The notes: generated by a model from the letters alone, not told the origin. 64,000 nt of DNA from Bulinus truncatus (GCA_021962125.1 JAGDYQ010000001.1:5516061-5580060), one strand, 5' to 3'; shown: positions 10,645-64,000, numbered from the stretch's first letter. A program made the numbers and translations.

Positions 10645-10915
10645 CCGGCCTTCAAGGTTGTTAACGATACTCTAAAATTGTATCGTCAATACCGATACCA
10701 CTACTTCATAAAAATAGTATCGCCAATACCAATACAAATACTCAAGTAAAAATGTATTGCCAAAATCGACACTGATACAATACCAATACTTTTGAGAACA
10801 ACAAAATGTTTTTATTTAAAATATAATGAGTGCAAGTTTCTCAAGTTTTTAGAATACATTGTCAAAGCACAATTTTAATGCTAATCACTTCACAACTTGG
10901 CAGCACGTAAGAAGA
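10645..10915 (-). mobile_element. Dispersed repeat copy 1, the sub-terminal or 3' non-coding region of a hAT-family element. The same 270 bp recurs at 27525-27990, inside the hAT-N element.
   Basis: There is about 90% identity to 27525-27654 plus 27837-27990. It lies directly downstream, on the minus strand, of the hAT dimerisation-domain ORF. Confidence 0.6.
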
Positions 10916-13985: not shown

Positions 13986-14569
13986 GCAAAGGGAGATAAT
14001 TGTGTATTTTTCCCCCTGTATACATCTCATACTATATACATATAAAGATGCACGTCTAATTGTATATTTAATCTTCTTGGCTCTACAACCCAGTTGTACA
14101 TGTAACATTGAAAGGTCACGAAAAATACTAGATATGGACATCAAGAGTAGCTGCAGTGAATACATTGAAGTAACAAAGTGAATGGTTTACTTCAAGATAT
14201 GCCACATTATGCGGGATGTTATTTTTATAGTAAACCTGAAGCGGCCAATTCGCTACTTTTAATAAGTTCTCATTTAATGTGTAGGCTAGGGTGATAACAA
14301 AAAAAAAGTTTTTTATGAAACCACTTGCAATCGAGGAACTTTTATGTGTAATTTAAGAATATGAATTGCATTTTTAATTTTTTTGAAAAAAGTTCCCCCA
14401 CCTCCACATTTTTTGGAAGAAAAAAGTGAAAAAAAATTTTTTTTTTCAAAAAAGGACATGTTTTTTTTTTTAGCTTAATTCAAAAGAGTATTAATAATAA
14501 CTAATCAACTTTTATTAACAAATAAGATATAGAACAGTTAGTAATATGTACAGAATGTACAAGAAATGT

Positions 14570-16400
14570 TCAAAACATATTTTGTCCTATGAACTTCAGA
14601 TTAAAAAATTCAATTTTTCTCGATTTCGCATGAAGTTCCGCCATCAGTTTCACAGCACGTTCAGCAATTTGGTTAGATCTGCGAATGTCAATTAATGACT
14701 TCTCGACTGACCAATGGGTCTTTAAACACTTAATTGCCTTCTTGCATTTTATCTTGATGAGTGAGGTAAACAGTTCATTGAAGGACGCTTCATTGTAGTG
14801 TTGCGAATCGAACCAAGCATTTGCCCATTCGTAGCAGATGAAGTTGCAGGCAGAAGCGAGAATGCTGAGCCACTCTGGTATCAGAAATAATGCTATAACA
14901 GTAAATATTGCACGTGAGTTCCATCTTGCCTGGTGTAAATTTGGTAATTTATTCCAGCTGATGCGAGGCCAACGGGGGTTCTCGCGTGCTAACATCTTCT
15001 GTCGCAAGAAGCGGTAATCAGCTTGAAGAGTGACATAGTTTTGTGTTAATTTGCCAATGAAGGAACAGTTGAGTTCTGGTTTGCTCGTTGGCTCTTGAAT
15101 AAGAAAATTCATGACATGTTTCAGAAGAAGGTCGAGTACATGGTGCTGACAGTCAATATATTGTGGCTTCTGAAAGCCATTGCTCAAGACATCATCTTGT
15201 ATGAGCTTTACAATCCCGTGCAAATGGTCAGTATTTCTGCGGTCGTGTCGCATATGTTCACGCAAATATTTTCTCAAGCATCATATTCATCAATTAGCTG
15301 ATGTAGTTCATTGTGAATGGCCGCGGCAGAACCACTCTCACATTTGAGAATACCGAGTTTGATTTCGGTTTTCATATTTTTCAGCAATCCTACTTGATAC
15401 TCTTCCACTTGCACTCTTTTACCATCAAACTGAAGACAATAGGGATCTTTGCTTTGAAGTTTTTGAACAATTTTGGTTTTCATTTTCCGTCCTTCAGAGA
15501 TTACTCGTTTCCAGACACCCGCCTGATTTGGAACCGCCACATCATGACCCTGTTCAGCAATGTTTGCAAGAACGTCATGTGCTTTATGTGTAGAAATGTT
15601 TTTCAGTACTAGTAAACCCGCCGTTCTAGTGCTTGCTCTTCGGTATTTCGGTTTGCATTCAGAAGATGACGTTTAAGAAATAGTTGGTGACTTGGGTGAA
15701 GAAGCAGATGTTTCAGAATCCAAGATTTTGAGACAGTTGTATGTTTTTGTGTAGGTTTTGAGACAGTTGTATGTGTTTGTGTAGTTTTTGAGACAGTTGT
15801 GTGTGTTTGTGTAGGTTTTGAGACAGTTGTGTTTGTTTGTGTAGGTTGTGAGACAGTTGTATGTGTTTTTGTAGGTTGTGATTGAGAAGAGCTGGATTGA
15901 GATTGAGTCTTTGATAGTCGGATTCGTTTTCTTGGGTGGAATGATTCCAAAGGGGCTTGTTTGACCATTGAATAACCAATCTTTCCTCCACTGTTAACTT
16001 GCCTCTGGTAGAGCTCTTTATCCTCTGTGCTTTTCCATTATCCATTAACGTTGGTGACATCAAATAACTGAGAAAGTGTTATCAGATGGTTTCTTTTTGT
16101 TTTTGTCATATAAATCAATTAGACCATTGAGTTTCGTTCTGATTAGTGTGCTGGATAATAGTGGAAAGTCTGGAATTTCCCTCCAGAGCATTTCTATATC
16201 AGTAATCATATTTTTGATTCGATCCAGTCGCCGTTTGTGGCTATTGAACAGAAAAGTGAAGTTTCCAAGAATTTGACGGTTTGTCGGCATCCATGTGAGA
16301 TTGATTAGCTCTTCAACAGATAGAATTCTTGGATACCTCTTCTGTTTAGAAGATGAGGGTAGATGTCTTGTTTATAAACAAATGGAAACAACTGACTGGA
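14570..16400 (-). pseudogene. Degraded transposase gene inside the hAT element. ORFs sit in three frames at 16400-16060, 16063-15609, 15540-15274 and 15277-14570. The C-terminus is hATC-like (HWSVEKSLIDIRRSNQIAERAVKLMAELHAKSRKIEF).
   Basis: ORFs run consecutively on one strand and are separated only by frameshifts. The C-terminal S..AER motif resembles hAT dimerisation SSAASERVFS, though weakly. A 31-bp tandem expansion sits inside the reading frame. I could not find a convincing catalytic DxWTS motif, so the assignment rests mainly on the element's termini and TSD. Confidence 0.45.
15718..15900. repeat. 31-bp tandem repeat (TTTTGAGACAGTTGTATGTTTTTGTGTAGGT), about 5.5 copies, inside the degraded transposase ORF. 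It encodes TQTHTTVSKP-type peptide repeats.
   Basis: Seen directly. Confidence 0.85.
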
Positions 16401-17404
16401 ATGTGCTTAAAAGCAGTCTAGTAAGTCATGTAAAAATTCAGTGTGAAATTGAAACCGAGCGTCAAACTGCGCGATATGAGAAATCAAAAAGGAAAAGGTG
16501 GGGGAACTTTTTTCGATTAAAAAAAAAATAATGTTGCTACTGTCATCTACATATAATTGTTCCTCGAATGTAAGGGGTTTCAGTTTCGTTACGAAAAAAA
16601 ATGAAAATAGTTATCACCCTAGTGTAGGCTTATGCACAAATATTGGTCAAGATTATTATTAACGATTGCCTACGTCAGCAAGTAACTGCAAAGTACAGAC
16701 ATATCCAACAACACTAGAGCAATGATGCTTGGAAGTTTATAAGTGGCTACTCAGAGAATGCAGAATGCTGAAATAAAATCACGGCAAGGGCTACAGACAA
16801 TGATAAAAGATGGTTGTTCCAGAACTATTTTTTAGAAAAGAGAGAGACGTATGAAGACAATACATACTTAACAGTTAATAGAGGAAGGAATCGTTATTTT
16901 ACACCCGAATTAAACCTGAAATATGTATTGAGAAAGTTTGTATTGTAATAGGTGGTGGGGGGCTCCAGCTACGGACTGAACTTTAATGTAGTGTCATTGT
17001 GACATAGATTGGTAATGTTTCATTCTGGCTGAGATAAATTAAGCTGTGGAGAGTGTGATCATTCTTTGAAGTTCTAAAAGACTTGAATAGGTTTGTGTGT
17101 AATCTTTCTCCAACATGGATATTGATAGAGATGCAAACTAAAAATTTCGCATGATTTACAATGATTGAGTGAATAACAGAGTGAACATATCCAGTAGCCT
17201 TCCTATCTGCTTTCAGTCATAATTCTGTTATTGTTGACAAGTTGTTGTAATGTAGAGAATCTCGCTTTGAAAAATAATACAATCGTTGATAAACAGATTT
17301 ACCAAGTTTTTATTTAAAAAGAAAAGAATAATTTAAGAAAGCTTTAAATTAAAGATTGGCTAAGAACTATCTGACGTTGTTCTGGATTATTTAATAAAAG
17401 TTCT

Positions 17405-17570
17405 AGTATTTTTATTTGGGGGGGGGGGGGAGTTTTCGCGCCGACACCGAACCGACTCCGGACAAAGTACAAATGCCGACACCGACTCCGGACAAAATAC
17501 AAATACCGACACCGACACCGGACAAAATACAAATACCGACACCGACACCGGCAAAAACTACGGACACCGG
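17405..17570. repeat. G13 run followed by about 30-bp repeats containing CCGACACCGAC(T/A)CCGGACAAAATACAAAT, 4 copies. It has an inverted counterpart at 62110-62240 and belongs to the same family as 13860-13985.
   Basis: Seen directly. The overlapping ORFs 17344-17687 are translations of this repeat. Confidence 0.7.
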
Positions 17571-17574
17571 CTCC

Positions 17575-17700
17575 CCAGCCCTGGTTGTAAGCTGTCCTGC
17601 TTGTGAAGAGGAATATTGTGACCCTCCAACAGAAGAATGGATCCAGTGCTGTAAATGCCCAGAGTGGTGACATGAGGACTGTTCCAATTATGAAAATGGC
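17575..17700 (+). other. Short Cys/His-rich coding-like fragment: SCPACEEEYCDPPTEEWIQCCKCPEW(TGA)HEDCSNYENGIFICDNY. It sits in the left-arm-specific 530-bp block (17575-18110).
   Basis: The C-x2-C ... W-I-Q-C-x-K-C ... H-x2-C ... C spacing is reminiscent of zf-CW or PHD-like fingers. It is interrupted by an in-frame TGA and has no upstream non-repeat ORF, so it is most likely a relic. Confidence 0.25.
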
Positions 17701-18109
17701 ATTTTTATTTGTGACAATTATTAGCTGCTCAACTTAATTCTTTAACATTATGTTACAATGCATTACGCTTAGTTTTATACTTTGTAAGATGTAAAAATAC
17801 ATTTATCATTTGTTAAATCATGTAAAATATTAAAAATAAAATGTGTTCAACTTTATCTTAATGTTGTCATCTTGCCTCAAGACCAAAGTCATCTTAACCC
17901 GGGTACTGGGCAAGATGAAAATTAGGTATGGTTTGGGAAAACTAAAATTATACTGTATTAATTTTATTTGAAAAATTAAATTGCAATATAATTAATACCA
18001 CAAATGGTTAATCTAAAAGTTCATGTAAAATTAATTTTACTATCCTTAAAAATAAAATCAATAAACACCATAAATTGTTAACATAGCCATCTTGCCCCGG
18101 TCTCCCATA

Positions 18110-18302
18110 CTGTCTGGCCCTTCCTGCTAACACATATGTCTATGTATGTACTCTCTGGCCATAAACAGCTCCCTGCTAACAAACATGTCTATATATGTAC
18201 TCTCTGGCCATAAACAGCTCCCTGCTAACAAATATGTCTATATATGTACTCTCTGGCCATAAACAGCTCCCTGCTAACAAATATGTCTATATATGTACTG
18301 TC
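18110..18302. repeat. 49-bp tandem repeat (CTGGCCATAAACAGCTCCCTGCTAACAAATATGTCTATATATGTACTCT), split by the 3.1-kb insertion, continuing at 21389-21600 and mirrored at 61640-62060.
   Basis: Seen directly. Confidence 0.85.
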
Positions 18303-21300
18303 CAATGTTCCCTCTAAGGATATGGGGTTTGTGCGCCAAAAAAAAATATTTGTGAGCCAAAATTTTATTGATGTGTAAATTGTGCGCCAATTGCACGACG
18401 CGCACTATAAATACAATTACTGTAATTTAAAAAGAAATAAATAATAAGATAATAGAGTCAACCACATGACTCCATATATTTAAATGTAGGAATTTTTTTA
18501 TAAAGCTTTTGTAAATAAATTCTTTTCGAATTAAAAAAAAAATAGGGTTGCAGTAAATATGGTTAAGTAGAAGAAATAACATTTAAAAATGACGAATATG
18601 CAAACCAAAAAAAAAATAGAAATAAATTGATAATTTTTTTAGATATAAATATAAATGGAAGTTTACTTGGGATAGACCAACACTAAACTAAATTCTAATA
18701 CAACAAAATAAAAAAGAAAACCCAAGAATTGGAGTCAATTAATTTTATTTGGTAATAATTAACTTTTCCCTTCTTCCTTTTTCTGCTTTCCAAAAGTCAT
18801 ATACAGGCCCGTAGCCAGAAATATTGGACTGGGGGGCCGAAGACATTTTCGGGGAGGCGAAGACATTTTTTTCGGGGGGGGGGGTGCCGAAGAAATGATC
18901 ATGGGGCACAGGGGCGGATCTAGACAACTTTGACGGGGGGGACATTGACCCCGGGGGGGGGCAAAACTGTTTTCATTGTTGAAAATTGGTCTTAGAACAA
19001 AACATATTTCGATAATTTAATGATGTATTACCTAAAATTCCAATAACGGGGGGGGGGGCATGCCGCCCCGGCCCCTCCCCCTAAATCCGCCACTGGTGAG
19101 GGGGGGGCGAAAATGGAGGCGCGAAGCGCCGAAAGCTTGCAAACGGAGAGCATGTGTTTGGGGAAGGGATCTCAGTGAGTCCCCTCCCCAAGAAATTTTT
19201 TGCAGTTCCATATCTGGAATGGTGCATTTTAGTACCGATTGTTTAGCTATCAATTAGAAATATATAATTTTTAACTACGTTTCAATAATGCATGACATGT
19301 TGCAGTTTTGTTAAAAATAATTTAAATGGTAAAGAGTTTTAATGATAAAAATTTTTTGAGGCTGAGCAATTTCTGATTCCTGTTATAAATATATTGACCA
19401 TTTGTTCTGCTACACAATTTTTACATAATAGATATCTGATTTATATTATTATACTGTTTGTTTAATGTACAACCCGGGAAGAACGACAAAGATGCACGAA
19501 TATAGCTTAGCTATTTGTGTGATATTTCTTATAAAATATTGAAAACAAAGAACAAATCTATCAACAACAACAGTCGCAATTATTCAATTTAAATTAAAAT
19601 TAATTCTGCTAAAAAGTAAATTTGCAAATTAAATAACATCACTCAGAAATCACGGAGTTTGTACTTTATTATTTTATTATACATATGTATAAAAATGAAG
19701 TCAGAAGTCAATGTTATTTTATTCACTTATTTAAGTTGCTAGTTGTCCTCAGAAGATATCAATATATAGAATTATTACAAGGTTGTGAACAGGCCCATCG
19801 ACAGAAATTTCGGGCCCCCGTGCTGATATTAATATGTTAAAAAGTTGATTGGCCAGCTCAGTCCGGGTCCCTAAAACTCGCCGGGCCCCTGGGCATTGGC
19901 CCCACTCGTCGGCACTGGTTGCGAACTTATATTATAATACGTTTCAAATTTGCAAACGTCGTGGTTTAGCACTGAATTTACCTAAAAATGCTTCAGCATT
20001 CAGATTGTCTGTTAAATATTTTTTTCAAATGCAAGCAGGAAAAGATTGCTTAGACGCTTTTGTAACATTGATCTGCGATATGGGGTGAGCATTCGTGTGA
20101 GGGTTGAGAAACTGTTCTCACACACGGCTGTTGAAGCCCCAAAATGCCAATGCTGCCCAAAATACCCATAAGTGAACTTCAATAAGATTCAATCTTTTAT
20201 GCCCAAAATTTAGATAAGCTATATATGTAAGTAAAATAGCCTGAATGATTGCCAAAATATAAACTTTTAAGTTTTTATTATTATTGATTTATTTAACAAA
20301 ATGATTGATGTTTTATAGCCGTTATTATTAAAATTTTGTCAAAAAAGCTCAAATCATGCACGGGGGGGCCTCAGGTCATGAACGGGGGGGCTCAACCCCC
20401 CACCCCTAGCCCCCCCCCCCCTGTGACTACGGGCCTGGTCATAAACATGATCTGACATTTTCAGCTAATAAATAAACAACCAAACGTACTAGTTGCGAAC
20501 ACGACTATTTATTTACAGAATGTTCATAATAATATAACAAGTCCATACATGAATACACTTTTAAAGTCCACAATAATTCATTCAGCCTCAACTCTGACTA
20601 ACAAAAGATCACTTAACTATTCTCGTCACTATCGTACCTCTCCCGTTACTAAAACTCCTAACTAAAACTCTCGTTACTATATATCTCTCGTAACATTATC
20701 TCCTCACTAAGAACTCTTAACTAACTAATGTTCGAATCCAGTCGTATTTATACTCCTAACGTCCGTGCCCTAATTACCCTAAATACGTCACAGTCTCTTC
20801 AGTATTGTCCTAACTATCTAATCTTTCTAGGAGCGTCACCTGGTCGTCATTGTTAACCTTACTAGCCTGTCCGACATCGCCTCCCAGTATTCACACCTTT
20901 GCTGTCTACTGTTCTATTGTTTCACCAACCTTGTCCTAAGTCGTCTACCATTATTTGTATTAATCCTACGTCTTAGATGTCTTTTTATCTTAAAACCTCG
21001 AAGGGGATTGTCTCTGTCTCTACAATTACCCTAGCTCGTCACAATATCACCAAATGACTCGAATCCTGTTCGTCGCCCTTTCGCTTCGACGTTTTCTTTT
21101 TTACTCCAACTATATTATATTTAACGAAGTGTACTATTTACAGTCAGCTTCAAGCCAATTACTTAAATTACGAACGGGATGGGAAGTTGATATCACAACA
21201 AAGACTGTATGCTATTTCGATCCCGTTAAGTTCATTTATATAGCGCAAGTCACGGCGGAATTTTATAACAAAATTTTATGAATTTTTTTTACTCTAATCA

Positions 21301-21388
21301 CACGTTTTGTGCGCCAAGCTAAAAAGATGTGCGCTGAGGTCTGAAAAATCGTGCGCTAGCGCAGGCTGGCGCAGATTAGAGGGAACAG
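18303..21388. mobile_element. Non-autonomous DNA transposon of about 3.09 kb. TIR CAATGTTCCCTCTAAGG ... TTAGAGGGAACA. It is inserted into the 49-bp tandem repeat of the left arm only, with an approximately 8-bp TSD (GTACTGTC / GTACTACT, diverged). The interior has no ORF over 80 aa and contains G- and C-homopolymer-rich blocks plus a roughly 500-bp G-depleted block (20560-21100).
   Basis: TIRs are seen directly and are shared with the 193-bp MITE at 24215-24407. The right arm carries the uninterrupted 49-bp array, which argues for insertion after the duplication. Confidence 0.65.
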
Positions 21389-23576
21389 TACTACTGCCTG
21401 GCCATAAACAGCTCGCTGCTAACAAATATATCTATATTTGTACTGTCTGGCCCACCCTGCTAACAAATATGTCTATATATGTACTGTCTGGCCATAAACA
21501 GCTCCCTGCTAACAAATATGTCTATATACGTACTCTCTGGCCATAAACAGCTCCCTGCTAACAAACATGTCTATATATGTACTGTCTGGCCCTCCCTGAT
21601 AACAAATAAAATACGTTAAGAAGAATTAAACACAACACTCTATGATCATTTCTATAGAAATATTTTAATCAATATTTCCCCCATTATAACCCGTTCTTAT
21701 TCGAATAGATTTCATTATTTTCATAGCCATGAAAAACTTTAATTTTTTTAAATGGTTCTTTCTGTCCTGTTTATTTTTACTGCACGCATTTGACTGTTTT
21801 GCCATCTCTACCAAAGCTTCTGCAAACTTGATGTAATTTCCACAAACTGGGGCTTTCTGATTGGGGCCGTATCATGCTATTTGAGCATGTGACATTGTTG
21901 ACCCCCTGTAAAGTAAATAAGCAGAAATTTACAACATAGACGATATAATGTGTTGCTAACCTAGTTGAATTCAGCATATGCATTTAACTAACATTTATAA
22001 TTAATTGGCATGTATTGATTTCTGATTTTATTTTTATTGTATTGTCAGTTCAATTGACCATTGTCCAAAGAAAAATACCACAAACAGCTACTATTTAAAC
22101 ACTAATACTAAGGGGAACCAGTGTTACCACTAAAACAATGAAAAAGCCAAGTTAGGACCATTAAAGAATCCAATAAAACCCAAGGAAGTTTTAAACCTTT
22201 TTTAATAATAGAAAAATATTTCATAAAACATAATGTAGTTCAATCGTATGTTTTTTTAACCCAAAAAGAGATTCTCCTAGCCCCTGAGTACAATACTCCC
22301 CCGTTTTTCCAGACAATAAATCAACGGGTCAGTACTGTTCAGTTCTCCCCCTTTTCCTCACCATAAATGGTCCAAGTGAGGAGAGGGGGGCACTTTTAAA
22401 ATACAGAAAAACAATACAAGCAAAAAAAAAAATTCAAGATTTTTAGCTTATATCTCCATTTCTCAAATCAGTGTTCGAAAACCCAAGATTCTGGGGAAAA
22501 AACAACTAGGTAAACCACTTTTTACAGCGAAAAGGAAAACCTTAATTAGCGACATTTTTTTTTATCTCCATTTTAAGGAGGATGAATAAAATTCGAGACT
22601 TCATCATTAGGGTGGGTAAAAAAAATTTTTTTGGAGTTGGGAATTTGAAACACATTCAAAAAGTTGCCCATGATCCTACTGATTGTAAAAATGTAAAATT
22701 TGTAAAAATCAGATAATGTCTTCCACTCCCAACTTTAAATGGGGTACGGGGAAAAAATGCACTATGTCTAAAAAAAAAACATTTTTTTTTTAATTTTTAG
22801 ATACTAGAATATGTCAATAATAACAATGAATTAACTATATTGCAGAAAAAAATATTTAGATCAATTACAATGTATTTTCAGAATGTTAATCATTCAGAAA
22901 CTTCAATAATTTAAAAACTTAAAAGTCATTTTTCTCTGAAAAAATATTTTTGACAATGTGCTTTACTGTAGCAAGGAAATCTCAAAAACTTCATGTCAGA
23001 TTTTGATAAAACTTCTAATTTATATTTAGCAGAGGTGCATTTATATAATGTCAGAGGCTTTTCAAGAAATTTTAAGTCCTTTTTTTTTTTTTGGCAATTT
23101 TTTTAATTTTCAGATTAGCATTTTTTTCTTATTTTCACAATAAAAAAATGTTAAATTCATTAAAAAAATATTTATTACATTATCAAAAAAAGTACTCTGA
23201 CATTCCCTAAAGTAAGCTTTCCTAATTATAAAAATGTACATTTTGTTTGAATCAGTCTATAAATATTTCAGAAATATTTGCCACAAAAAGGTCATAAATT
23301 TCAAGATGGCGGCATGCCACACCCACAAATATCAATGTTTTAATATTTTTTTTTGCACAAAATTATTTTTAAATATACTATATCATTACTAAGATATTAA
23401 AATGACTTAAACTTTAATAAAAAAAGATTTTGCTTTGACCCGGGTACCCCCCCCCCCAATGTAAGATATTTTACAACATTTAGAATGTTTGGTATAAGTA
23501 ATATAAAATTGTAAAATCTATAGATCGTTCATGCAAAATATACAATGTACATAAGAATAATACTGTTTACGGATTG

Positions 23577-25275: not shown

Positions 25276-25649
25276 TGCTTATCCCAGTTATCTGAACTAA
25301 TTAGTTATTCATAAAAAAGGTTATAAAGATAAAACACAAATTTTATATGCATACTATTTCTTTTTTGAATAACCTAGGTCACAAATTCAACATGTTCGGT
25401 CACAAATGAGTCACAAAAATTATGGTTAAAATTTCGAACAAAAGTTGGGAGTAGTAAAACTATGTAGTTTTCAAATACTTGTACCTATTCTATGTACTAC
25501 CATGATATAACAACTTTTTAATAATGTTTCATTAAAATTTTTTTTTTACCCACACTACTCATCATTTTCCAGCCACTGGAATTTTTGTTTTTACATCTGA
25601 AATTGGGTGACTATTAAAATACGTTTTTGTAATTGGGTCCATCTTGTTA

Positions 25650-26045
25650 TTCAGCTGGACATAAACCTGGGCAAACTGTTGATGATATGTTAGAGCGTGA
25701 TGTCTGTCAATGTTGTCATAGAGCTTGGCAAACCGTTAGTTGATGTTATGTAAGCGTTTGATGTCTGTCAATGTTGACATACAACTGGTCAAACTTTTGA
25801 TGATATGTTAGAGCGTGATGTCTGTCAATGTTGACATACAACTGGTCAAACTTTTGATGATATGTGAGAGTGTGATGCCTGTCAATGTTGACATACAGCT
25901 GTACAAACTGTTGATGATATGTGAGAGTGTGATGTCTGTCAATGTTGTCATAGAGCCTGGCAAACCGTTAGTTGATGTTATGTAAGCGTTTGATGTCTGT
26001 CAATGTCGACATACAACTGGGCACACTGTTTGTTGATATGTGAGA
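25650..26045 (-). repeat. Short inverted array of about 7 monomers of the main 58-61-bp satellite in reverse-complement orientation. It abuts the left IR arm and mirrors the array/right-arm junction at 59866.
   Basis: The reverse complement of 25650-25700 matches 59830-59866 (catatcatcaacagtttgcccaactga). The monomers match the boundary variants found at 31600-31700. Confidence 0.85.
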
Positions 26046-26047
26046 AT

Positions 26048-26240
26048 GTGATGTGCACGCTCATCTCGCCACTTACAAAAAAGCAGAACAAAGAATGCCT
26101 CACCTCTCTCGCCACTTACAAAAAAGCAGAACAAAGAATGCCTCACCTCTCTCGCCACTTACAAAAAAGCAGAACAAAGAATGCCTCACCTCTCTCGCCA
26201 CTTACAAAAACGCAGAACAAAGAATGCCTCACCCTCTCTT
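26048..26240. repeat. 38-bp tandem repeat (CTCTCGCCACTTACAAAAAAGCAGAACAAAGAATGCCTCACC), 5 copies.
   Basis: Seen directly. ORFs 26003-26329 are its translations. Confidence 0.85.
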
Positions 26241-28318: not shown

Positions 28319-28329
28319 ACTAATAGGAT

Positions 28330-52500: not shown

Positions 52501-55500
52501 ACAGTTTACCCAGTTGTATGTCAACATTGACAGACATCACACTCTCACATAACAACAAACAGCCCAGTTGTATGTCAACATTGACAGACATCACACTCTC
52601 ACATAACATCTACTAATAATTTACCCAGTTGTATGTCAACATTGACAAACATCACACTCTCACACAACATCTACTAATAGTTTACCCAGTTGTATGTCAA
52701 CATTGTCAAACATCACACTCTCACATAACATCTACTAGTAATTTACCCAGTTATAAGTCAACATTGTCAAACATCACACTCTCACACATCTACTAATAGT
52801 TTACCCAGTTGTATGTCAACATTGACAAACACCACACTTGCACACAACATCTACTAATAGTTTACCCAGTTGTATGTCAACATTGACAAACAACACACTT
52901 GCACACAACATCTACTAATAGTTTACCCAGTTGTACGTCAACATTGACAGACATCACACTCTCACATATCAACAAACAGTTTGCCCAGTTGTATGTCAAC
53001 ATTGACAGACATCACACTCTCACATATCAACAAACAGTTTGCCCAGTTGTATGTCAACATTGACAGACATCACACTCTCACACATCTACTAATAGTTTAC
53101 CCAGTTGTATGTCAACATTGACAAACATCACACTCTCACACAACATCTACTAATAATTTACCCAGTTGTATGTCAACATTGACAGACATCATACTCTCAC
53201 ACAACATCTACTAATAATTTACCCAGTTGTATGTCAACATTGACAGACATCACACTCTCACACAACATCTACTAATAATTTACCCAGTTGTATGTCAACA
53301 TTGACAGACATCACACTCTCACACAACATCTACTAATAATTTACCCAGTTGTATGTCAACATTGACAGACATCACACTCTCACACAACATCTACTAATAA
53401 TTTACCCAGTTGTATGTCAACATTGACAGACATCACACTCTCACACAACATCTACTAATCATTTACCCAGTTGTATGTCAACATTGACAAACATCACACT
53501 CTCACACAATATCTACTAATAGATTGCTCAGTTGTATGTCAACATTGACAGACATCACACTCTCACATATCAACAAACAGTTTGCCCAGTTGTATGTCAA
53601 CATTGACAAACATTACACTCTCACATATCAACAAACAGTTTGCCCAGTTGTATGTCAACATTGACAGACATCACACTCTCACATATCAACAAACAGTTTG
53701 CCCAGTTGTATGTCAACATCGACAGACATCACACTCTCACATATCAACAAACAGTTTGCCCAGTTGTATGTCAACATTGACAGACATCACACTCTCACAT
53801 ATCAACAAACAGTTTGTCCAGTTGTATGTCAACATTGACAGACATCACACTCTCACACAACATCTACTAATCATTTACCCAGTTGTATGTCAACATTGAC
53901 AAACATCACACTCTCACACAACATCTACTAATAGATTGCCCAGTTGTATGTCAACATTGACAGACATCACACTCTCACATATCAACAAACAGTTTGCCCA
54001 GTTGTATGTCAACATTGACAAACATCACACTCTCACATATCAACAAACAGTTTGCCCAGTTGTATGTCAACATTGACAGACATCACACTCTCACACAACA
54101 TCTACTAATAATTTACCCAGTTGTATGTCAACATTGACAGACATCATACTCTCACACAACATCTACTAATAGTTTACCCAGTTGTATGTCAACATTGACA
54201 GACATCACACTCTCACATATCAACAAACAGTTTGCCCAGTAGTATGTCAACATTGTCAAACATCACACTCTCACACAACATCTACTAATAATTTACCCAG
54301 TTGTATGTCAACATTGACAGACATCACACTCTCACATATCAACAAACAGTTTACCCAGTTGTATGTCAACATTGACAGACATCACACTCTCACATAACAA
54401 CAAACAGCCCAGTTGTATGTCAACATTGACAGACATCACACTCTCACATAACATCTACTAATAATTTACCCAGTTGTATGTCAACATTGACAAACATCAC
54501 ACTCTCACACAACATCTACTAATAGTTTACCCAGTTGTATGTCAACATTGTCAAACATCACACTCTCACACATCTACTAATAGTTTACCCAGTTGTATGT
54601 CAACATTGACAAACACCACACTTGCACACAACATCTACTAATAGTTTACCCAGTTGTATGTCAACATTGACAAACACCACACTTGCACACAACATCTACT
54701 AATAGTTTACCCAGTTGTACGTCAACATTGACAGACATCACACTCTCACATATCAACAAACAGTTTGCCCAGTTGTATGTCAACATTGACAGACATCACA
54801 CTCTCACATATCAACAAACAGTTTGCCCAGTTGTATGTCAACATTGACAGACATCACACTCTCACACATCTACTAATAGTTTACCCAGTTGTATGTCAAC
54901 ATTGACAAACATCACACTCTCACACAACATCTACTAATAATTTACCCAGTTGTATGTCAACATTGACAGACATCATACTCTCACACAACATCTACTAATA
55001 ATTTACCCAGTTGTATGTCAACATTGACAGACATCACACTCTCACACAACATCTACTAATAATTTACCCAGTTGTATGTCAACATTGACAGACATCACAC
55101 TCTCACACAACATCTACTAATAATTTACCCAGTTGTATGTCAACATTGACAGACATCACACTCTCACACAACATCTACTAATAATTTACCCAGTTGTATG
55201 TCAACATTGACAGACATCACACTCTCACACAACATCTACTAATCATTTACCCAGTTGTATGTCAACATTGACAAACATCACACTCTCACACAATATCTAC
55301 TAATAGATTGCTCAGTTGTATGTCAACATTGACAGACATCACACTTCACATATCAACAAACAGTTTGCCCAGTTGTATGTCAACATTGACAAACATCACA
55401 CTCTCACATATCAACAAACAGTTTGCCCAGTTGTATGTCAACATTGACAGACATCACACACTCACATATCATCAAACAGTTTGCCCAGCAGTATGTCAAC

Positions 55501-58500
55501 ATTGACAGACATCACAAACTATTTGCCCAGCAGTATGTCACATTGACAGACATCACACTCTCACATATCAACAAACAGTTTGTCCAGTTGTATGTCAACA
55601 TTGACAGACATCACACTCTCACACAACATCTACTAATAGTTTACCCAGTTGTATGTCAACATTGACAGACATCACACTCTCACATATCAACAAACAGTTT
55701 GCCCAGTTGTATGTCAACATTGACAGACATCACACTCTCACATATCAACAAACAGCCCAGTTATATGTCAACATTAACAGTTATCACACTCTCACATAAC
55801 ATCTACTAATAATTTACCCAGTTGTATGTCAACATTGACAGACATCACACTCTCACATATCAACAAACAGTTTGCCCAGTAGTATGTCAACATTGTCAAA
55901 CATCACACTCTCACACAACATCTACTAATAATTTACCCAGTTGTATGTCAACATTGACAGACATCACACTCTCACATATCAACAAACAGTTTACCCAGTT
56001 GTATGTCAACATTGACAGACATCACACTCTCACATAACAACAAACAGCCCAGTTGTATGTCAACATTGACAGACATCACACTCTCACATAACATCTACTA
56101 ATAATTTACCCAGTTGTATGTCAACATTGACAAACATCACACTCTCACACAACATCTACTAATAGTTTACCCAGTTGTATGTCAACATTGTCAAACATCA
56201 CACTCTCACACATCTACTAATAGTTTACCCAGTTGTATGTCAACATTGACAAACACCACACTTGCACACAACATCTACTAATAGTTTACCCAGTTGTATG
56301 TCAACATTGACAAACACCACACTTGCACACAACATCTACTAATAGTTTACCCAGTTGTACGTCAACATTGACAGACATCACACTCTCACATATCAACAAA
56401 CAGTTTGCCCAGTTGTATGTCAACATTGACAGACATCACACTCTCACATATCAACAAACAGTTTGCCCAGTTGTATGTCAACATTGACAGACATCACACT
56501 CTCACACATCTACTAATAGTTTACCCAGTTGTATGTCAACATTGACAAACATCACACTCTCACACAACATCTACTAATAATTTACCCAGTTGTATGTCAA
56601 CATTGACAGACATCACACTCTCACACAACATCTACTAATAATTTACCCAGTTGTATGTCAACATTGACAGACATCACACTCTCACACAACATCTACTAAT
56701 AATTTACCCAGTTGTATGTCAACATTGACAGACATCACACTCTCACACAACATCTACTAATAATTTACCCAGTTGTATGTCAACATTGACAGACATCACA
56801 CTCTCACACAACATCTACTAATAATTTACCCAGTTGTATGTCAACATTGACAGACATCACTCTCACACAACATCTACTAATCATTTACCCAGTTGTATGT
56901 CAACATTGACAAACATCACACTCTCACACAATATCTACTAATAGATTGCTCAGTTGTATGTCAACATTGACAGACATCACACTCTCACATATCAACAAAC
57001 AGTTTGCCCAGTTGTATGTCAACATTGACAAACATCACACTCTCACATATCAACAAACAGTTTGCCCAGTTGTATGTCAACATTGACAGACATCACACTC
57101 TCACATATCAACAAACAGTTTGCCCAGTTGTATGTCAACATCGACAGACATCACACTCTCACATATCAACAAACAGTTTGCCCAGTTGTATGTCAACATT
57201 GACAGACATCACACTCTCACATATCAACAAACAGTTTGTCCAGTTGTATGTCAACATTGACAGACATCACACTCTCACACAACATCTACTAATAGTTTAC
57301 CCAGTTGTATGTCAACATTGACAGACATCACACTCTCACATATCAACAAACAGTTTGCCCAGTTGTATGTCAACATTGACAGACATCACACTCTCACATA
57401 TCAACAAACAGCCCAGTTATATGTCAACATTAACAGTTATCACACTCTCACATAACATCTACTAATAATTTACCCAGTTGTATGTCAACATTGACAAACA
57501 TCACACTCTCACTCAACATCTACTAATAGTTTACCCAGTTGTATGTCAACATTGTCAAACATCACACTCTCACATAACATCTACTAGTAATTTACCCAGT
57601 TATAAGTCAACATTGTCAAACATCACACTCTCACACAACATCTACTAATAGTTTACCCAGTTGTATGTCAACATTGACAAACATCACACTCTCACACAAC
57701 ATCTACTAATAGTTTACCCAGTTGTATGTCAACATTGACAGACATCACACTCTCACATATCAACAAACAGTTTGCCCAGTTGTATGTCAACATTGACAGA
57801 CATCACACTCTCACACATCTACTAATAGTTTACCCAGTTGTATGTAAACATTGACAGACATCACACTCTCACACAACATCTACTAATAATTTACCCAGTT
57901 GTATGTCAACATTGACAGACATCATACTCTCACACAACATCTACTAATAGTTTACCCAGTTGTATGTCAACATTGACAGACATCATACTCTCACATATCA
58001 ACAAACAGTTTGCCCAGTTGTATGTCAACATTGACAAACATCACACTCTCACACAACATCTACTAATAATTTACCCAGTTGTATGTCAACATTGACAGAC
58101 ATCACACTCTCACATATCAACAAACAGTTTGCCCAGTTGTATGTCAACATTGACAGACATCACACTCTCATATATCAACAAACAGCCCAGTTGTATGTCA
58201 ACATTGACAGACATCACACTCTCACATAACATCTACTAATAATTTACCCAGTTGTATGTCAACATTGACAAACATCACACTCTCACACAACATCTACTAA
58301 TAGTTTACCCAGTTGTATGTCAACATTGTCAAACATCACACTCTCACATAACATCTACTAGTAATTTACCCAGTTATAAGTCAACATTGTCAAACATCAC
58401 ACTCTCACACAACATCTACTAATAGTTTACCCAGTTGTATGTCAATATTGTCAAACATCACACTCTCACACATCTACTAATAGTTTACCCAGTTGTATGT

Positions 58501-59866
58501 CAACATTGACAAACATCACACTCTCACACATCTACTAATAGTTTACCCAGTTGTATGTCAACATTGACAAACATCACACTTGCACACAACATCTACTAAT
58601 AGTTTACCCAGTTGTATGTCAACATTGACAAACACCACACTTGCACACAACATCTACTAATAGTTTACCCAGTTGTATGTCAACATTGACAAACATCACA
58701 CTCTCACACAACATCTACTAATAGTTTACCCAGTTGTACGTCAACATTGACAGACATCACACTCTCACATATCAACAAACAGTTTGCCCAGTTGTATGTC
58801 AACATTGACAGACATCACACTCTCACATATCAACAAACAGTTTGCCCAGTTGTATGTCAACATTGACAGACATCACACTCTCACACATCTACTAATAGTT
58901 TACCCAGTTGTATGTCAACATTGACAAACATCACACTCTCACACAACATCTACTAATAATTTACCCAGTTGTATGTCAACATTGACAGACATCATACTCT
59001 CACACAACATCTACTAATAATTTACCCAGTTGTATGTCAACATTGACAGACATCACACTCTCACACAACATCTACTAATAATTTACCCAGTTGTATGTCA
59101 ACATTGACAGACATCACACTCTCACACAACATCTACTAATAATTTACCCAGTTGTATGTCAACATTGACAGACATCACACTCTCACACAACATCTACTAA
59201 TAATTTACCCAGTTGTATGTCAACATTGACAGACATCACACTCTCACACAACATCTACTAATCATTTACCCAGTTGTATGTCAACATTGACAAACATCAC
59301 ACTCTCACACAACATCTACTAATAGATTGCCCAGTTGTATGTCAACATTGACAGACATCACACTCTCACATATCAACAAACAGTTTGCCCAGTTGTATGT
59401 CAACATTGACAAACATCACACTCTCACATATCAACAAACAGTTTGCCCAGTTGTATGTCAACATTGACAGACATCACACTCTCACATATCAACAAACAGT
59501 TTGCCCAGTTGTATGTCAACATCGACAGACATCACACTCTCACATATCAACAAACACTTTGCCCAGTTGTATGTCAACATTGACAGACATCACACTCTCA
59601 CATATCAACAAACAGTTTGCCCAGTTGTATGTCAACATTGACAGACATCACACTCTCACACAACATCTACTAATAGTTTACCCAGTTGTATGTCAACATT
59701 GACAAACATCACACTCTCACACAACATCTACTATTAGTTTACCCAGTTGTATGTTAACATTGACAAACATCACACTCTCACACAACATCTACTAATAGTT
59801 TACCCAGTTGTATGCCAACATTGACAGACATCACACTCTCACATATCATCAACAGTTTGCCCAACT
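31588..59866. repeat. Main satellite array, about 28.3 kb, with 58-61-bp monomers (consensus about CCCAGTTGTATGTCAACATTGACAGACATCACACTCTCACACAACATCTACTAATAGTTTA; the 58-bp variant ends ...CTCACATATCAACAAACAGTTTG). It is organised in higher-order repeats with about 1.07-kb and about 2.5-kb periodicities and very high inter-period identity.
   Basis: Seen directly. Identical 89-aa ORF artefacts recur at 36429, 38945, 41512, 42585, 45760, 48277 and 50843, with spacings of 2516, 2517 and 1073 bp. The edge monomers (31600-33300) are more diverged. Confidence 0.95.
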
Positions 59867-61639
59867 GAATTACAAGACCCAATTACAAAAACGTATTTTA
59901 ATAGTCATTCAATTTCTGGTGTAAAAACAAACATGCCAGAGGCTGGAAAATGAATGAGATCTCGAATTTTATTCATCCTCCTTTAAATGGAGAAAAAAAA
60001 AATGTCGCTAGTTTAGGTTTTCTTTTTTGCTGTAAAAAGTGATTTACCTCAGTGTTACCGCTCCTTGTTTTTTCCCCCAGAATCTTGGGTTTTCGAACAC
60101 TGACTTGAGAAATGGAGATTTAAGCTAAAAATCTTGAATTTTTTTGCTTGTATTGTAATTCTGGATTTTAAATGTGTCCTCCTCACTTGGACCAATTATG
60201 ATTAGGAAAAGGGGAAGAACTGAGCTGATGGACTAGGAAGCGTTAGGTTTTTTTGCTTTTAGTTTTAGAGCATTCTCCCCGTTTTGTCTGTCTGTCTGTC
60301 ATCACCTTAGATCTCAACAACCATAAATCCTAGACCCATGATTTATATATCATTTTGTAGGTCTTGGCCTGCCACGTGTACATCAAAAGTCCATTTTGCG
60401 ATCTGACCTCTGAGGGGCGAATACTAGGGCTTCGTATGGTACCGTTTTTTTTACTATATAAGCTATATTATCAAAGGGGCGTACAAAGGGGCGTAACTCA
60501 TTATTTATTTTTGTAACAGTTATTAAACATGAATTACTTCCTCACTATTTATCATAACTCATACCACGCAAATGCTCTAAAACGTCCTGTGTCCGAAACG
60601 GTACAGGCTTAAATTGCTTGTTTAAATTGTAAAAGTGCACTCCTAAACAGACCTGGACCGTTGATTTATTGTGGAGAAAAAGTGGGACAATCTCGTTTTG
60701 GGTAAAAAAAACATATGATTGAATTACATTATGTTTTATAATATATTTGTTTATTATATAAAAAGGCTTAAAACTTTCATTTGGTTTTATTGGATTTTTA
60801 ATGGTCTTAACTTGGGTTTTTAATGGTTCTAGCTTCGTTTTATCATTGTTTTAGTTGTAACACTGATTCCCCTTAGTATTAGTGTGTTTAAATAGTGGCT
60901 GTTTGTGGTATTTTTCTCAATTGAACTGACAATACACTAAAAAAATCAGAAATCAATACATGCCAATTAATTAAATATGTTAGTTATATGCATATGCTGA
61001 ATTCAACTAGGTTAGCAACACATTATGTCGTCTATGTTGTACATTTCTGCTTATTTACTTTACAGGGGGCCAACAATGTCACGTGCTCAAATAACACAGG
61101 ACGCTGTCACCCATACACTGACAAAATAAATATTGTCCATGCATTAAGCGACCTTTTGACAGCGGCTGAAGGCTGGATATTTTACATTGAAGAAATAATT
61201 TGGGCTTACATGGAAGATGACATTGTCTTGTATCGAAGACTACACCATTTACAATGGAAATTCTTTGATGATAGTAATGTATTTTATAGTCTACTCACAG
61301 AAATTTACTACGCAGATAAAAGAATTAAATTCTGTGCGGAGGAGGAACAATAGGGTGAACCTCTTGTGTCGCGCTTAGCAGGATACGGCCCCAATCAGAA
61401 AGCCCCAGTTTGTGGAAATTATATCAAGTTTGCAGAAGCTTTGGTAGAGATGGCTAAACAGTCAATTGCGTGCAGTAAAAATAAACAGGACAGAAAGAAC
61501 CATTTAAAAAAAATAAAGTTTTTCATGGCTATGAAAAGAATGAAATCTATTCGAATAAGAACGGGTTATAATGGGGGAAATATTGATTAAAATATTTCTA
61601 TAGAAATGATCATAGAGTGTTGTGTTTAATTCTTCTTAA

Positions 61640-62060
61640 CGTATTTTATTTGTTATCAGGGGGGCCAGACAGTACATTTATAGATATATTTGTTAGCAGG
61701 GAGAGCCAGACAGTACATTTATAGATATATTTGTTAGCAGGGAGGGCCAGACAGTACAAATATAGATATATTTGTTAGCAGGGAGCTGTTTATGGCCAGA
61801 GAGTACGTATATAGACATATTTGTTAGCAGGAAGCTGTTTATGGCCAGACAGTACATATATAGACATATTTGTTAGCAGGGAGGGCCAGACAGTACATTT
61901 ATAGATATATTTGTTAGCAGGGAGGGCCAGACAGTACATTTATAGATATATTTGTCAGCAGGGAGCTGTTTATGGCCAGAGAGTACGTATATATACATAT
62001 TTGTTAGCAGGGAGCTGTTTATGGCCAGACAGTACATATATAGATATATTTGCTAGAATT
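61640..62060. repeat. 49-bp tandem repeat (reverse complement of CTGGCCATAAACAGCTCCCTGCTAACAAATATGTCTATATATGTACTCT), about 8.5 uninterrupted copies. It mirrors the split array at 18110-18302 and 21389-21600.
   Basis: Seen directly. Confidence 0.85.
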
Positions 62061-62109
62061 GAAATATTAAGTGGTTTACCATCGTGCTAGACCAAAGGCT
62101 TATTCTTAT

Positions 62110-62240
62110 TGTCAGAGCTGTGGAGCCGGCGTTGGTGTCGGTGGTGTCAGTAGTTTTTGCCGGTGTCGGTGTCGGCGTTTGTACTTTGCCCGATGTCGGT
62201 GTCGGTATTTGTACTTCTTCCGGAGTCGGTTCGGTATCGA
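62110..62240. repeat. Inverted copy of the CCGACACCG-family repeats (GGTGTCGGTGTCGG...).
   Basis: Reverse complement of 17440-17560. Confidence 0.7.
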
Positions 62241-64000
62241 CGCAAAATCTTGCCCAAAAAATACTAGAACTATAATTAAATAATCCAGAACAATGTCAGA
62301 TAGTTCTTAGCCAATCTTTAATTTAAAGTTTTATCAAGTTCTTCTTTTCTTTTTAAATAAATACTTGGTAAATCTGTTTATGTATTATTTGCCATAGCGA
62401 GATTCTCTACAATGCAACGACTTGTCAACATTAACAGAATTATGACTGAAAGCAGATAGGAAGGCTACGGGCTATGTTCACTCTGTTAATCACTCAATCA
62501 TTGTAAATCATAAGAAATGTTTAGTATGCATCTCTCTATCAATATCCAGGTTGGAGAAAGAGTACACACAAACCTATCCAAGTCTTTTTAGAACCTCAAA
62601 GAATGACCTGTTCAAATGTTCCTACAATCATAGTTAACCCACAACTAACACTCTTCACATCTTAATTTCTCTCAGTCAGACTGAAACATTACCAGTACGT
62701 CCGAATGGCACTACATAAAATCCCACTCCGTTGCTAGCTATTGAAGCGCCAGGTGCGTGTCTTTTGGCGCCCCCTCCCCCCCCCCCCACCCACCGTTCTG
62801 AAAAGTGTGCAACCTACTACAATACACAACATTTTTCACTACTTATTTCTGTTTTAATTCAGGGGAAAAAAAAACGATTCCCTCCTCTATTAACTGTTAA
62901 GTATGCAGTGTCTTCATGCGTATCTTTCTTCTCTAAAAAAATAGGTCTGGAACAAATCTTTTTATCATTATTTGTAGCCCTTGCCGTGATTTTATTTCAG
63001 CATTCTGCATTCTCTGAATGGCCACTTAAAACTTCCAAGCATCATTGCTCTAGTGTTGTTGGATATGTCTGCACTTTGCAGTGACTTGCAGACTTAGGCA
63101 ATCGGTGATATAATCTTCACCAATACTTGAGCATAAGCCTACACATAAATGATAACTTATTAAAAGTAGCGAATTGGCCGCTTCAGATTTACTATAAAAA
63201 TAGCATTCAGCATACTGTGGCATATTTTGAAGTTGAACATACACTTTTGTCACTTCAATCTATTCACTGCAGCTACTCTAGTGTTTTTCGTGACTTTTCA
63301 ATGTTACCTGTACAACTGAGAACTTTTTTTTTCATTATAATGGACATGCTGCAAAATCATAGATCACAGATGCAAATTTATAACTAATGAAGGGCCACAA
63401 TAGGTTCTTAAATTTGATTGAAGGGCCGGACCAAGAGAGTATTAATGGGGTGTTTATAATACTTTATACGAGCAAACATAAATGTAAGTAATATCAATGT
63501 AAATGCGGCTCGAATAAAAACGTTTAACGGACTTAGGATGTCCATGTCTGGTCTAGAAGCTGAACATTGTTTTCAAGATTACTATTTCGGAGACCCGTAT
63601 AGCTCGGCGCCCTGTGCATAATTGTTAAAATAAATACATTTAACTCCACAGTTTGGGCATTTTATTTATTTACTTTTGTTATTTAGTAATTACATTACAA
63701 CTAGACAATAAAATAAACTATTTCATATTAGGCCCATACAATGCAAACTGCAACATAATTATACCTTCTTTAAGTTTTTTAAAAATAAAATTAGGTATAT
63801 TCATGGTGAGGTCAGAAAATAAAAATGCCGAAAAATTTGCTATTAAAGAGCAGCATAGCAAGATGCACAGGCAATTTTTATTATGTTTAAACAAAATAAA
63901 AGCTACCGGTACCATAGAAGTGGTGTGTGTGTTAGTGCAGTGGTCCCTAACGTTTTTCTCGCGGCAGACCGGTCGACATTTGATAATTTTACCGCGGCCC

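Follow-up and report, generated by a model that had tools for sequence, protein, structure and literature searches.

A 64,000-nucleotide stretch of Bulinus truncatus DNA (hereafter the window) very probably holds two diverged, head-to-head copies of one ancestral unit, with their satellite arrays facing inward and a 5.5-kb single-copy spacer between them (Table 1). Duplications of repeat loci of this kind are known, and the palindrome is not a frame specially made for the satellite. The ancestral unit would have consisted of a short array of 61-bp repeats, a fixed junction, ~3.5 kb of non-coding flank, and a sharp terminus. After duplication, three transposons would have entered the left copy, in which about seven old-type monomers remained. 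The array of the right copy would have grown to 474 monomers (28 kb) as blocks of several monomers were duplicated again and again by unequal exchange, with the monomers at its edges staying old. Gene conversion may still pass occasionally between the arms.

Table 1. Features of the inverted structure, in window coordinates. Arm blocks are given as right-arm position ~ left-arm position.
Feature	Position	Strand	Remarks
Left copy	14091..26054	+	Left to right: outer terminus, flank with three transposons, junction, inverted mini-array
Right flank copy	59860..63318	-	Junction outward to outer terminus
Outer terminus, left copy	14091..14130	+	Starts CAGTTGTACATGTAACATTGAAAGGTCAC; arm homology ends sharply
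Outer terminus, right copy	63279..63318	-	Reverse complement reads CAGTTGTACAGGTAACATTGAAAAGTCAC
Arm block	59860-59958 ~ 25657-25558	opposite strands	Self-BLAST
Arm block	59949-60223 ~ 22608-22339	opposite strands	Self-BLAST
Arm block	60685-61096 ~ 22277-21875	opposite strands	Self-BLAST
Arm block	61376-61854 ~ 21879-21392	opposite strands	Self-BLAST
Arm block, 49-bp minisatellite	61647-62056 ~ 21392-21608 + 18108-18302	opposite strands	Self-BLAST
Arm block	62125-63157 ~ 17552-16609	opposite strands	Self-BLAST
Arm block	63136-63318 ~ 14287-14091	opposite strands	Self-BLAST
Insertion 1	14287..16621	-	2.3-kb transposon, inverted ends TAGGGTGATAAC
Left-specific stretch	17591..18107	.	~0.5 kb; right-arm counterpart only ~68 bases (62057-62124)
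Insertion 3	18306..21387	.	3.1-kb element, perfect 12-bp inverted ends TGTTCCCTCTAA
High-identity tract	21600..21879	+	97.8% identical to 61376-61650; rest of arms ~91%
Insertion 4	22608..25557	.	2.95-kb transposon, inverted ends TAGGGTGGGTAAAAAAAA
Junction segment, left copy	25558..25657	+	Base-for-base alignment with 59860-59958
Inverted mini-array	25658..26054	-	Six full and one partial 61-bp monomers; opposite to main array
Spacer	26055..31586	.	Single-copy; 43-bp minisatellite (26064-26254) and dispersed-repeat fragments
Dispersed repeat B copies	30206..31009	+	Part tandem duplicate; no relation to arm symmetry
Main satellite array	31587..59859	+	474 monomers of 61/58/54 bp, 28 kb
Element B	60224..60640	.	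MITE-like insert, ~0.4 kb, right arm only
Right-only stretch	61097..61375	.	279 bp; from arm alignment
49-bp minisatellite, right arm	61647..62056	-	Unbroken here, split by insertion 3 in left arm

The inverted arms and their insertions

When the window is compared with itself by BLAST, positions 59860-63318 align with the reverse complement of 14091-25657, and the outward order is kept. Eight blocks are colinear, with order and orientation preserved across 3.5 kb, the array junction included. Their bit scores (185-765) are far above chance, and HSP identities range from 77 to 90% when gaps are counted. Based on substitutions only, the arms are 91.7% identical over 2090 aligned bases (K2P 0.088), such that 8.3% of aligned bases differ in addition to many indels. 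The inverted repeat proposed in the original prediction is therefore real, and the ends given for it (14088, 25640, 59866, and 63320) fall within ~20 bases of those found here (14091, 25657, 59860, and 63318). Its view that the duplication is not recent also agrees with the ~8% difference and with the arm-specific transposons that have empty sites opposite. A six-frame Pfam scan of the right flank (59860-63318) returned no match, in keeping with non-coding DNA, and self-BLAST revealed no third copy or fragment of an arm in the remaining non-satellite part of the window (~30 kb).

The left arm spans 11.5 kb versus 3.5 kb for the right arm, because it contains ~8.9 kb of sequence of its own, ~8.4 kb of which is accounted for by three transposon insertions. 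Insertion 1 is bounded by a perfect 8-bp target duplication (GTGTAGGC, at 14279-14286 and 16622-16629), and the right arm carries the empty site. Copies of the entire element with 77-87% DNA identity are present in five contigs from two ENA assemblies, and a frog protein entry matches its 235-amino-acid ORF with 66% identity, which independently confirms insertion 1 as a mobile family; a Pfam search of the element yielded no domain. Insertion 4 likewise has an 8-bp target duplication (TTCATCAT/CTCATCAT) and an empty site in the right arm. Insertion 3 divides the 49-bp minisatellite of the left arm into two parts (18108-18302 and 21392-21608). Thus, target duplications are clear for two of the three left-arm transposons (insertions 1 and 4), but not for insertion 3.

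The right arm is interrupted as well. Element B, which has 13-bp inverted repeats (GTTTTAGAGCATT) at 60262 and 60571, is evidently an independent dispersed repeat, because further copies exist at 30206-31009 and none in the left arm. The right-only stretch of 279 bp was either inserted into the right arm or lost from the left arm by microhomology-mediated deletion. More generally, the window is rich in transposons, and elsewhere in it, at ~8293-9062, lies a small insertion of foldback type flanked by a 10-bp target duplication.

One portion of the arms is more alike than the remainder (Fisher test p = 1e-5). This high-identity tract, at 21600-21879, is probably the product of arm-to-arm gene conversion. 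Furthermore, one monomer is shared by the two arrays with 61 of 61 bases identical, an outcome with a chance of ~0.005 at 8.3% divergence. Together, the tract and the identical monomer point to conversion between the arms.

The two arrays, the spacer, and the outer termini

The 28-kb satellite of the original prediction is present. All 474 monomers of this main array lie in one orientation, with no minus-strand self-matches, and each carries the dyad TGTCAA-CA-TTGACA. The array is composed of multi-monomer blocks, which recur at ~18 monomers (an offset of 1073 bp) and with a periodicity of 156 monomers, and it contains exact internal duplicates of up to 2260 bp. Only 82 of 473 monomer sequences are distinct, and the mean pairwise monomer identity is 90%, compared to 84% in the mini-array. 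Unique old monomer variants occur at both edges. The array therefore displays the features of a satellite with higher-order structure, namely a long head-to-tail series of a single family, block homogenisation, and divergent edge monomers. CpG observed/expected is 0.03 inside the satellite and 0.62-0.82 outside it.

The left arm does not simply border the main array with unique sequence, as had been proposed, but passes on its inner side into the mini-array, where the same satellite lies in inverted orientation; the monomers there are recognised by nhmmer with E-values of 1e-8 to 1e-16. The mini-array retains old monomer variants. Its monomer at 25783 is the one identical to a main-array monomer (31636, the leftmost), and this variant is found nowhere else in the main array. 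The mini-array monomer at the junction (25722) has its nearest main-array relative in the last monomer (59809). The mini-array thus holds both edge variants of the main array.

In addition, the junction between array and flank is the same, base for base, in both copies. Because the mini-array and the main array join the flank at the same junction, the satellite very probably belongs to the repeated unit and is older than the duplication. Similarly, because the mini-array has both edge variants, a short array was very probably already present and was copied with the flank. These two observations do not support the proposal that the rearrangement created the array. Rather, the 28-kb array is evidently a recent expansion of one copy. 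The expansion would be far younger than the duplication, because the arms are 8.8% diverged (K2P) and the array still consists of long exact repeats with few distinct monomers.

The centre of symmetry had been placed on the array, but is instead the spacer, whose 5532 bp separate the left arm from the main array. The spacer has no arm homology, no satellite homology, and no degenerate satellite. It also lacks any coding remnant, since its stop-free stretches outside the minisatellite are at most 84 amino acids long and the ten longest are without a Pfam match. Past the arrays, where 26055 onward is set against 31586 backward, the copies are not homologous. No inverted microhomology is seen at the present boundaries of the spacer/inverted-copy junction (GCACGC versus CTGTCA), although array turnover may have erased any.

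Both outer termini are sharp and the same in kind, beginning CAGTTGTAC with CAG as the first bases, and the window contains just two occurrences of the terminus motif. Within the left terminus, 22-25 bases resemble the monomer stretch CAGTTGTATGTCAACATTGACAG in inverted orientation. This match is short and weakly significant, with its score reached by 1-5 (left) or 6-69 (right) of 2134-3204 background windows, and no satellite match was detected at the outer terminus with nhmmer. The structure as a whole is not surrounded by a target-site duplication: the last bases before its left end are CTCTACAACC, the first after its right end are AGAACTTTTT, and the flanking bases are CC/AG-type, not TT. 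Further copies of the arm or terminus gave no match in the collections searched, which probably lack the source genome.

Possible origins of the inverted copies

We tentatively and only slightly favour a local, in-place inverted duplication by fold-back or template switching. Synthesis primed by fold-back at a break, or a switch of template where a fork had stalled, could have caused the array edge and its flank to be copied in reverse beside the original, leaving the loop as a single-copy spacer. Several observations are counted in favour. First, the window has exactly two copies, which are adjacent and inverted with arrays inward. Second, the 5.5-kb spacer is within the published range for fold-back inverted duplications, whose single-copy spacers measure 0.77-70 kb with a median of 3.4 kb (Hermetz et al. 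2014, PMC3907307). Third, the whole structure is without a target-site duplication, and arm and spacer are without coding remnants. Counted against it are the sharp, CAG-starting ends weakly resembling part of an inverted monomer, which would be unexpected at a random breakpoint, and the lack of inverted microhomology at the present spacer/inverted-copy junction, which array turnover may have erased. The 3.5-kb arms are also far below the megabase arms of documented human cases, and the small foldback-type transposon in the window is real, so such elements exist in this genome.

That last point bears on a somewhat unlikely alternative, in which the region from 14091 to 63318 is, or descends from, one Tetris-like foldback element, with the repeats of one arm later becoming a satellite. 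Tetris of Drosophila virilis has inverted arms with an outer domain followed by tandem repeats, and a non-coding middle (Dias et al. 2014, PMC4079207). Its internal 220-bp repeat, TIR-220, has expanded into kilobase-scale arrays, which show greater homogeneity than short arrays do (PMC4079207). The element also has an 8-10 bp target-site duplication, an outer domain of at most 0.87 kb, and 37 bases (~80%) common to flanking domain and repeat (PMC4079207). The B. truncatus structure matches this architecture point by point, with an outer domain, inward tandem repeats, a non-coding middle, and unequal repeat counts. Moreover, the long array is more homogeneous than the short one, the outer ends share their sharp CAGTTGTAC start, and the 22-25-base stretch common to terminus and monomer would be the counterpart of the 37 bases in Tetris. 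The presence of a small foldback-type insertion with its 10-bp target duplication also fits.

However, the structure is not bounded by a target-site duplication of 8-10 bp, even though such duplications survive at the younger insertions and at the small foldback element. At 3.5 kb, the outer domain is also longer than in Tetris, the terminus-monomer likeness is weak and escapes nhmmer, and a second copy was absent from the collections searched, which probably lack the source genome. Thus, the suggestion of a foldback-element origin in the original prediction agrees with the Tetris-type arms and non-coding middle domain but fails on the target-site duplication. We regard as unlikely the specific proposal that the 49-kb structure is a decayed Tetris-like element in a non-drosophilid, whose 61-bp repeat came from its own terminus and expanded to 28 kb in one arm. 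If true, it would capture satellite birth from a transposon's inverted end, with the other arm preserving the pre-expansion state side by side.

Another possibility, which we consider quite improbable, is that the arms are separate insertions of a non-autonomous, HINE-like transposon carrying a short satellite array near one end, brought close by chance or local hopping. A constant array/flank junction, an array of about seven monomers, freedom of orientation, and the lack of a target-site duplication are features of HINE-borne arrays (PMC7492417). The sharp outer terminus is compatible as well, and the CpG ratio outside the satellite, so different from that inside, suggests a minisatellite-rich invertebrate genome. 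In contrast, the copies share one flank only, with no second flank, subterminal repeat, or 3′ palindrome beyond the arrays, and the bases flanking the structure differ from the TT of a HINE insertion. This model would also have to call on coincidence to explain why just two copies occur, at a distance of 5.5 kb and with opposed arrays, and why a further 30 kb holds no other fragment. The conversion tract fits long proximity of the arms, though it is compatible with separate insertions.

The original prediction also allowed that the arm likeness might come from independent copies of several unrelated dispersed repeats. This is true of segment B (~60224-60640) in this transposon-rich window, but is very improbable for the arms as a whole, in which eight blocks keep their order and orientation over 3.5 kb and every interruption can be accounted for by a precisely placed insertion or indel. 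Assembly often goes astray in long satellite arrays, and the length stated for this one could be inaccurate given its exact duplicates of up to 2.26 kb. In an artefactual palindrome the two arms are almost identical, and a chimeric fold-back read or satellite mis-join is scarcely credible for arms that differ by ~8% with many indels, carry three transposons on the left (two with clear target duplications) and two specific segments on the right, and end in arrays with different monomer variants; the palindromic mis-assembly that had been a concern is thereby dismissed.

Significance and comparison with known systems

The locus offers a before/after pair, in which the same short array, junction, and flank occur 5.5 kb apart, one copy with about seven old-type monomers and the other expanded ~70-fold. 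It allows the expansion to be placed in time against both the duplication and three transposon insertions. Array edges are also shown directly to escape homogenisation, given that the expanded copy retains old variants at its two edges only. If the unit is mobile, the locus would provide a case from outside Drosophila in which a foldback-type element seeded a satellite, and if it is a one-off, a small fold-back duplication would have seeded a second satellite site. Either way, the locus is a useful illustration and introduces no new principle.

Classical FB elements have subrepeats that extend to their termini, and the whole element is a few kilobases long. The structure described here resembles FB-type transposons in having inverted tandem-repeat arrays about a loop, but differs by its 3.5-kb unique domain outside the repeats and by the lack of a target duplication.

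Comparison with Cg_HINE of the Pacific oyster is similarly mixed. Those elements carry satellite-like arrays with a constant junction and flank, in both orientations and without a target-site duplication (Vojvoda Zeljko et al. 2020, PMC7492417). They have left and right flanks, subterminal inverted repeats, a microsatellite, a 3′ palindrome, and monomers mostly of 140-180 bp, and short Helentron-associated (HINE) arrays can seed longer satellite arrays (PMC7492417). The B. truncatus locus shares the short array at a constant junction with a constant flank and the absence of a target-site duplication, but has a single shared flank and none of the HINE substructures.

Relative to Tetris, the differences are the missing target-site duplication, the 61-bp monomer, the 3.5-kb outer domain, arms that are 8% diverged, no shared inner domain after the repeats, and a common stretch of only 22-25 bases that is weakly significant. 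The similarities are the arm layout, the non-coding middle, unequal repeat numbers, kilobase-scale expansion, and possibly a short stretch common to domain and repeat.

In human fold-back cases, the megabase arms adjoin a translocation or terminal deletion, and inverted microhomology of 2-8 bases is seen at the junction (PMC3907307). In contrast, the event described here is old and fixed, involves arms of 3.5 kb plus an array, and has no recognisable microhomology. The locus nevertheless shares with fold-back duplications (PMC3907307) the arrangement of inverted copies with a single-copy spacer of a few kilobases, here 5.5 kb.

The satellite as part of the inverted repeat

Self-comparison on both strands revealed that the right flank of the satellite, 59860-63318, is found again as its reverse complement at 14091-25657. 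The homology comprises eight blocks that keep their outward order (bit scores of 185-765) and ends sharply at 14091 and 63318, beyond which the DNA is unrelated. When interruptions are removed, the arms are 91.7% identical over 2090 aligned bases (K2P distance of 0.088), with transitions about as frequent as transversions. The original prediction that the right flank is repeated inverted on the left, in the same outward order, is borne out almost to the base, and the structure is indeed real, old, and inverted. However, the accompanying interpretation that the arms frame an array created by the event does not hold, because the satellite itself lies inside the repeated unit and is older than the duplication. 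Because the arms diverge by 8% and carry arm-specific events, a palindromic artefact of assembly is excluded, and we leave only small remainders of probability to artefact and mosaic explanations.

A single large array (31636-59850, period 61) was reported by Tandem Repeats Finder. Cutting this array at a conserved anchor divides 31587-59859 into 474 monomers with lengths of 61, 58, or 54 bp, all of which lie on the same strand, and there are no minus-strand self-matches within the array. Directly inside the left arm (25658-26054) is a mini-array made of the same satellite but inverted relative to the large array, with six complete monomers and a partial one. Where the array gives way to unique sequence, 25657 and 59860 agree base for base, and the variants found at the two edges of the large array are both present in the mini-array. 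Specifically, the mini-array monomer at 25783 is identical at 61 of 61 positions to 31636, the first full-length monomer in the large array and a variant absent elsewhere in it, and the nearest relative of the mini-array junction monomer is 59809, the last monomer of the large array. The shared junction and the two edge variants therefore indicate that the repeated unit held a complete short array plus its flank. Thus, the satellite is part of the inverted repeat and predates the duplication.

The true center of symmetry is the 5.5-kb stretch at 26055-31586, where self-comparison found no arm homology. Searches of the arms and this spacer by nhmmer with a monomer profile yielded no degenerate satellite, and therefore the spacer is not a decayed array. 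Pfam scans of the arm in six frames and of the spacer's ten longest open stretches gave no match.

Within the large array, stretches of up to 2260 bp recur exactly, offset by 1.07, 2.5, and 9.3 kb, and 473 monomers comprise only 82 distinct sequences. The mean pairwise monomer identity is 90% there, compared to 84% in the mini-array. The duplication is therefore much older than the expansion, which proceeded via copying of multi-monomer blocks. Old variants persist solely at the two edges of the large array and in the unexpanded copy. The hairpin potential of the monomer dyad is modest (-5 kcal/mol, z of about -1 to -2), and no mechanism is built on it here.

Insertions and probable conversion in the arms

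The arms differ in length because three transposon insertions interrupt the left arm (insertions 1, 3, and 4 in the table), whereas the matching sites of the right arm are uninterrupted. The 2.3-kb element of insertion 1 is clearly mobile, as five contigs from two ENA assemblies also contain it (77-87% DNA identity; about 84% for the family at loci L005-L009). These contigs belong to other organisms and are uninformative on copy number. The two assemblies differ in G+C content (30% and 40% at the two loci measured), and about 80 kb of the contigs bearing this transposon have nothing else in common with the window. The ends of the element (TAGGGTG...) and its 8-bp target duplication are hAT-like features. 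Its 235-amino-acid ORF belongs to a conserved protein with homologues of up to 376 amino acids and no Pfam domain, and is 66% identical to part of a frog entry labelled phosphatidylcholine transfer protein, a label that is probably a transposon-derived mistake. Comparison of the ORFs of insertions 1 and 4 revealed no detectable relationship. The similarity of element B, a MITE-like insert in the right arm, to its further copies is that of an independent dispersed repeat outside the symmetry.

Repeats and insertions in the window
Feature	Position	Description
Second satellite, unrelated to the main one	1-1398	periods 57/109/161 bp; strongly C-rich on + strand; continues past the left end of the window
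Compact foldback-type insertion	8293-9062 (with 7988-8292 and 9063-9145)	array of 16-bp unit CGGACAAAACCCCCAG at 8298-8439, 509-base loop, inverted array at 8949-9056; splits a 49-bp minisatellite that resumes in direct orientation beyond; bordered by 10-bp direct duplication CTGTGTTTGG
Dispersed-repeat pair	10653-10921/27520-27986	direct, 83-85% identity; unrelated to arms
Dispersed-repeat pair	20492-20987/28306-28861	insertion 3 interior and spacer, inverted, 63-74% identity; unrelated to arms
Transposon-protein remnant, classed as outside the arms	10890-11198 (-)	weak hAT dimerisation-domain match, E = 3e-4, slightly short of Pfam cut-off
Transposon-protein remnant, classed as outside the arms	13123-13518 (+)	ORF resembling a DDE transposase C-terminus by eye; no Pfam match
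Transposon-protein remnant, classed as outside the arms	17416-17670 (+)	Cys-rich PHD-like motif, within left-specific stretch
Insertion 1	14287-16621	inverted ends TAGGGTGATAAC; perfect 8-bp target duplication GTGTAGGC
30-bp minisatellite in insertion 1	15726-15881	includes CAGTTGTATGT, 11 bases that match the satellite monomer exactly
Insertion 3	18306-21387	perfect 12-bp inverted ends; no clear target duplication; cuts the 49-bp minisatellite of the arm in two
Insertion 4	22608-25557	inverted ends TAGGGTGGGTAAAAAAAA; target duplication TTCATCAT/CTCATCAT
Element B	about 60224-60640	0.4 kb, MITE-like, right-arm-specific; further copies at 30206-31009
Right-arm-specific stretch	61097-61375	279 bp

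One tract of about 280 bp (21600-21879 / 61376-61650) is 97.8% identical between the arms, compared to about 91% elsewhere (p = 1e-5), and at the divergence of the arms, identity of a monomer at 61 of 61 positions would be expected by chance with a probability of about 0.005. We read both as gene conversion between nearby inverted copies, although the tract could instead be a constrained element, a reading that retains some probability.

Origin of the duplication

Both outer ends of the arm homology start with CAGTTGTAC and bear a weak resemblance to a stretch of 22-25 bases in the inverted monomer. Among 2134-3204 background windows, 1-5 reach the score of the left terminus and 6-69 that of the right terminus, and nhmmer did not detect the resemblance at all. 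Caution is also called for by the match CAGTTGTATGT in insertion 1, given that about one exact 11-base match of this type is expected by chance in non-satellite DNA by our own estimate. Canonical transposon ends include TA for Tc1-type elements, TC...CTRR for Helitron-type elements, and 8-bp target duplications for hAT-type elements. When the termini are read against these family ends, none of the three fits.

Three candidates were considered from which to infer how the duplication arose. We tentatively favor a local inverted duplication, which would explain why the window contains two copies and no more, side by side and inverted with their arrays facing inward, and why no target-site duplication was found around the whole structure or around each copy alone. 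Such an event would also account for the single-copy spacer, as fold-back duplications typically have spacers of this size (median of 3.4 kb, range of 0.77-70 kb; PMC3907307). However, it would leave unexplained the shared CAGTTGTAC starts and the weak monomer resemblance of both outer ends.

A foldback element like Tetris of Drosophila virilis is a less probable origin, albeit one that predicts the layout seen here: an outer unique domain, inner tandem repeats, a non-coding middle domain, and unequal arrays (PMC4079207). It also predicts a stretch in common between outer domain and repeat, for which the weak resemblance of the outer ends to the monomer is a candidate. No coding remnant was detected in the spacer or arm, and the same window contains a foldback-type insertion that is small but complete and has a target duplication of 10 bp. 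However, the expected target duplication was not found around the structure, and an unusually long outer domain would be required. It is less probable still that a satellite-carrying transposon of the kind of the Helentron-associated elements (HINE) of oyster (PMC7492417) inserted twice, since only one flank is in common and two copies would have had to land so close together, head to head, by coincidence, even though the constant junction and short array fit.

Surroundings and wider context

The window has the appearance of eukaryotic DNA rich in repeats. Its G+C content is 36%, only four ORFs exceed 120 amino acids, and scans across it for Rfam families and tRNAs found none. Outside the satellite, the observed/expected CpG ratio is 0.62-0.82, a level that is not vertebrate-like. 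Given the second satellite at the left end, the region sits between two satellite arrays.

The 105-amino-acid ORF of the satellite and the 117-amino-acid ORF of the arm have no match in the protein collection, which apparently does not include the source genome. A 20-mer of the monomer gave just four chance matches of 21-23 bases among metagenome contigs; terminus and monomer found no match in prokaryote genomes and viral contigs, nor was the monomer sequence found in the full texts of papers.

The value of this locus lies in the clean pair that it provides: of two copies of a single satellite locus, one is expanded and the other is not. The structure itself belongs to known kinds, being either the expansion of a satellite from a short array that was duplicated or carried by a transposon, or a duplication of the fold-back type.
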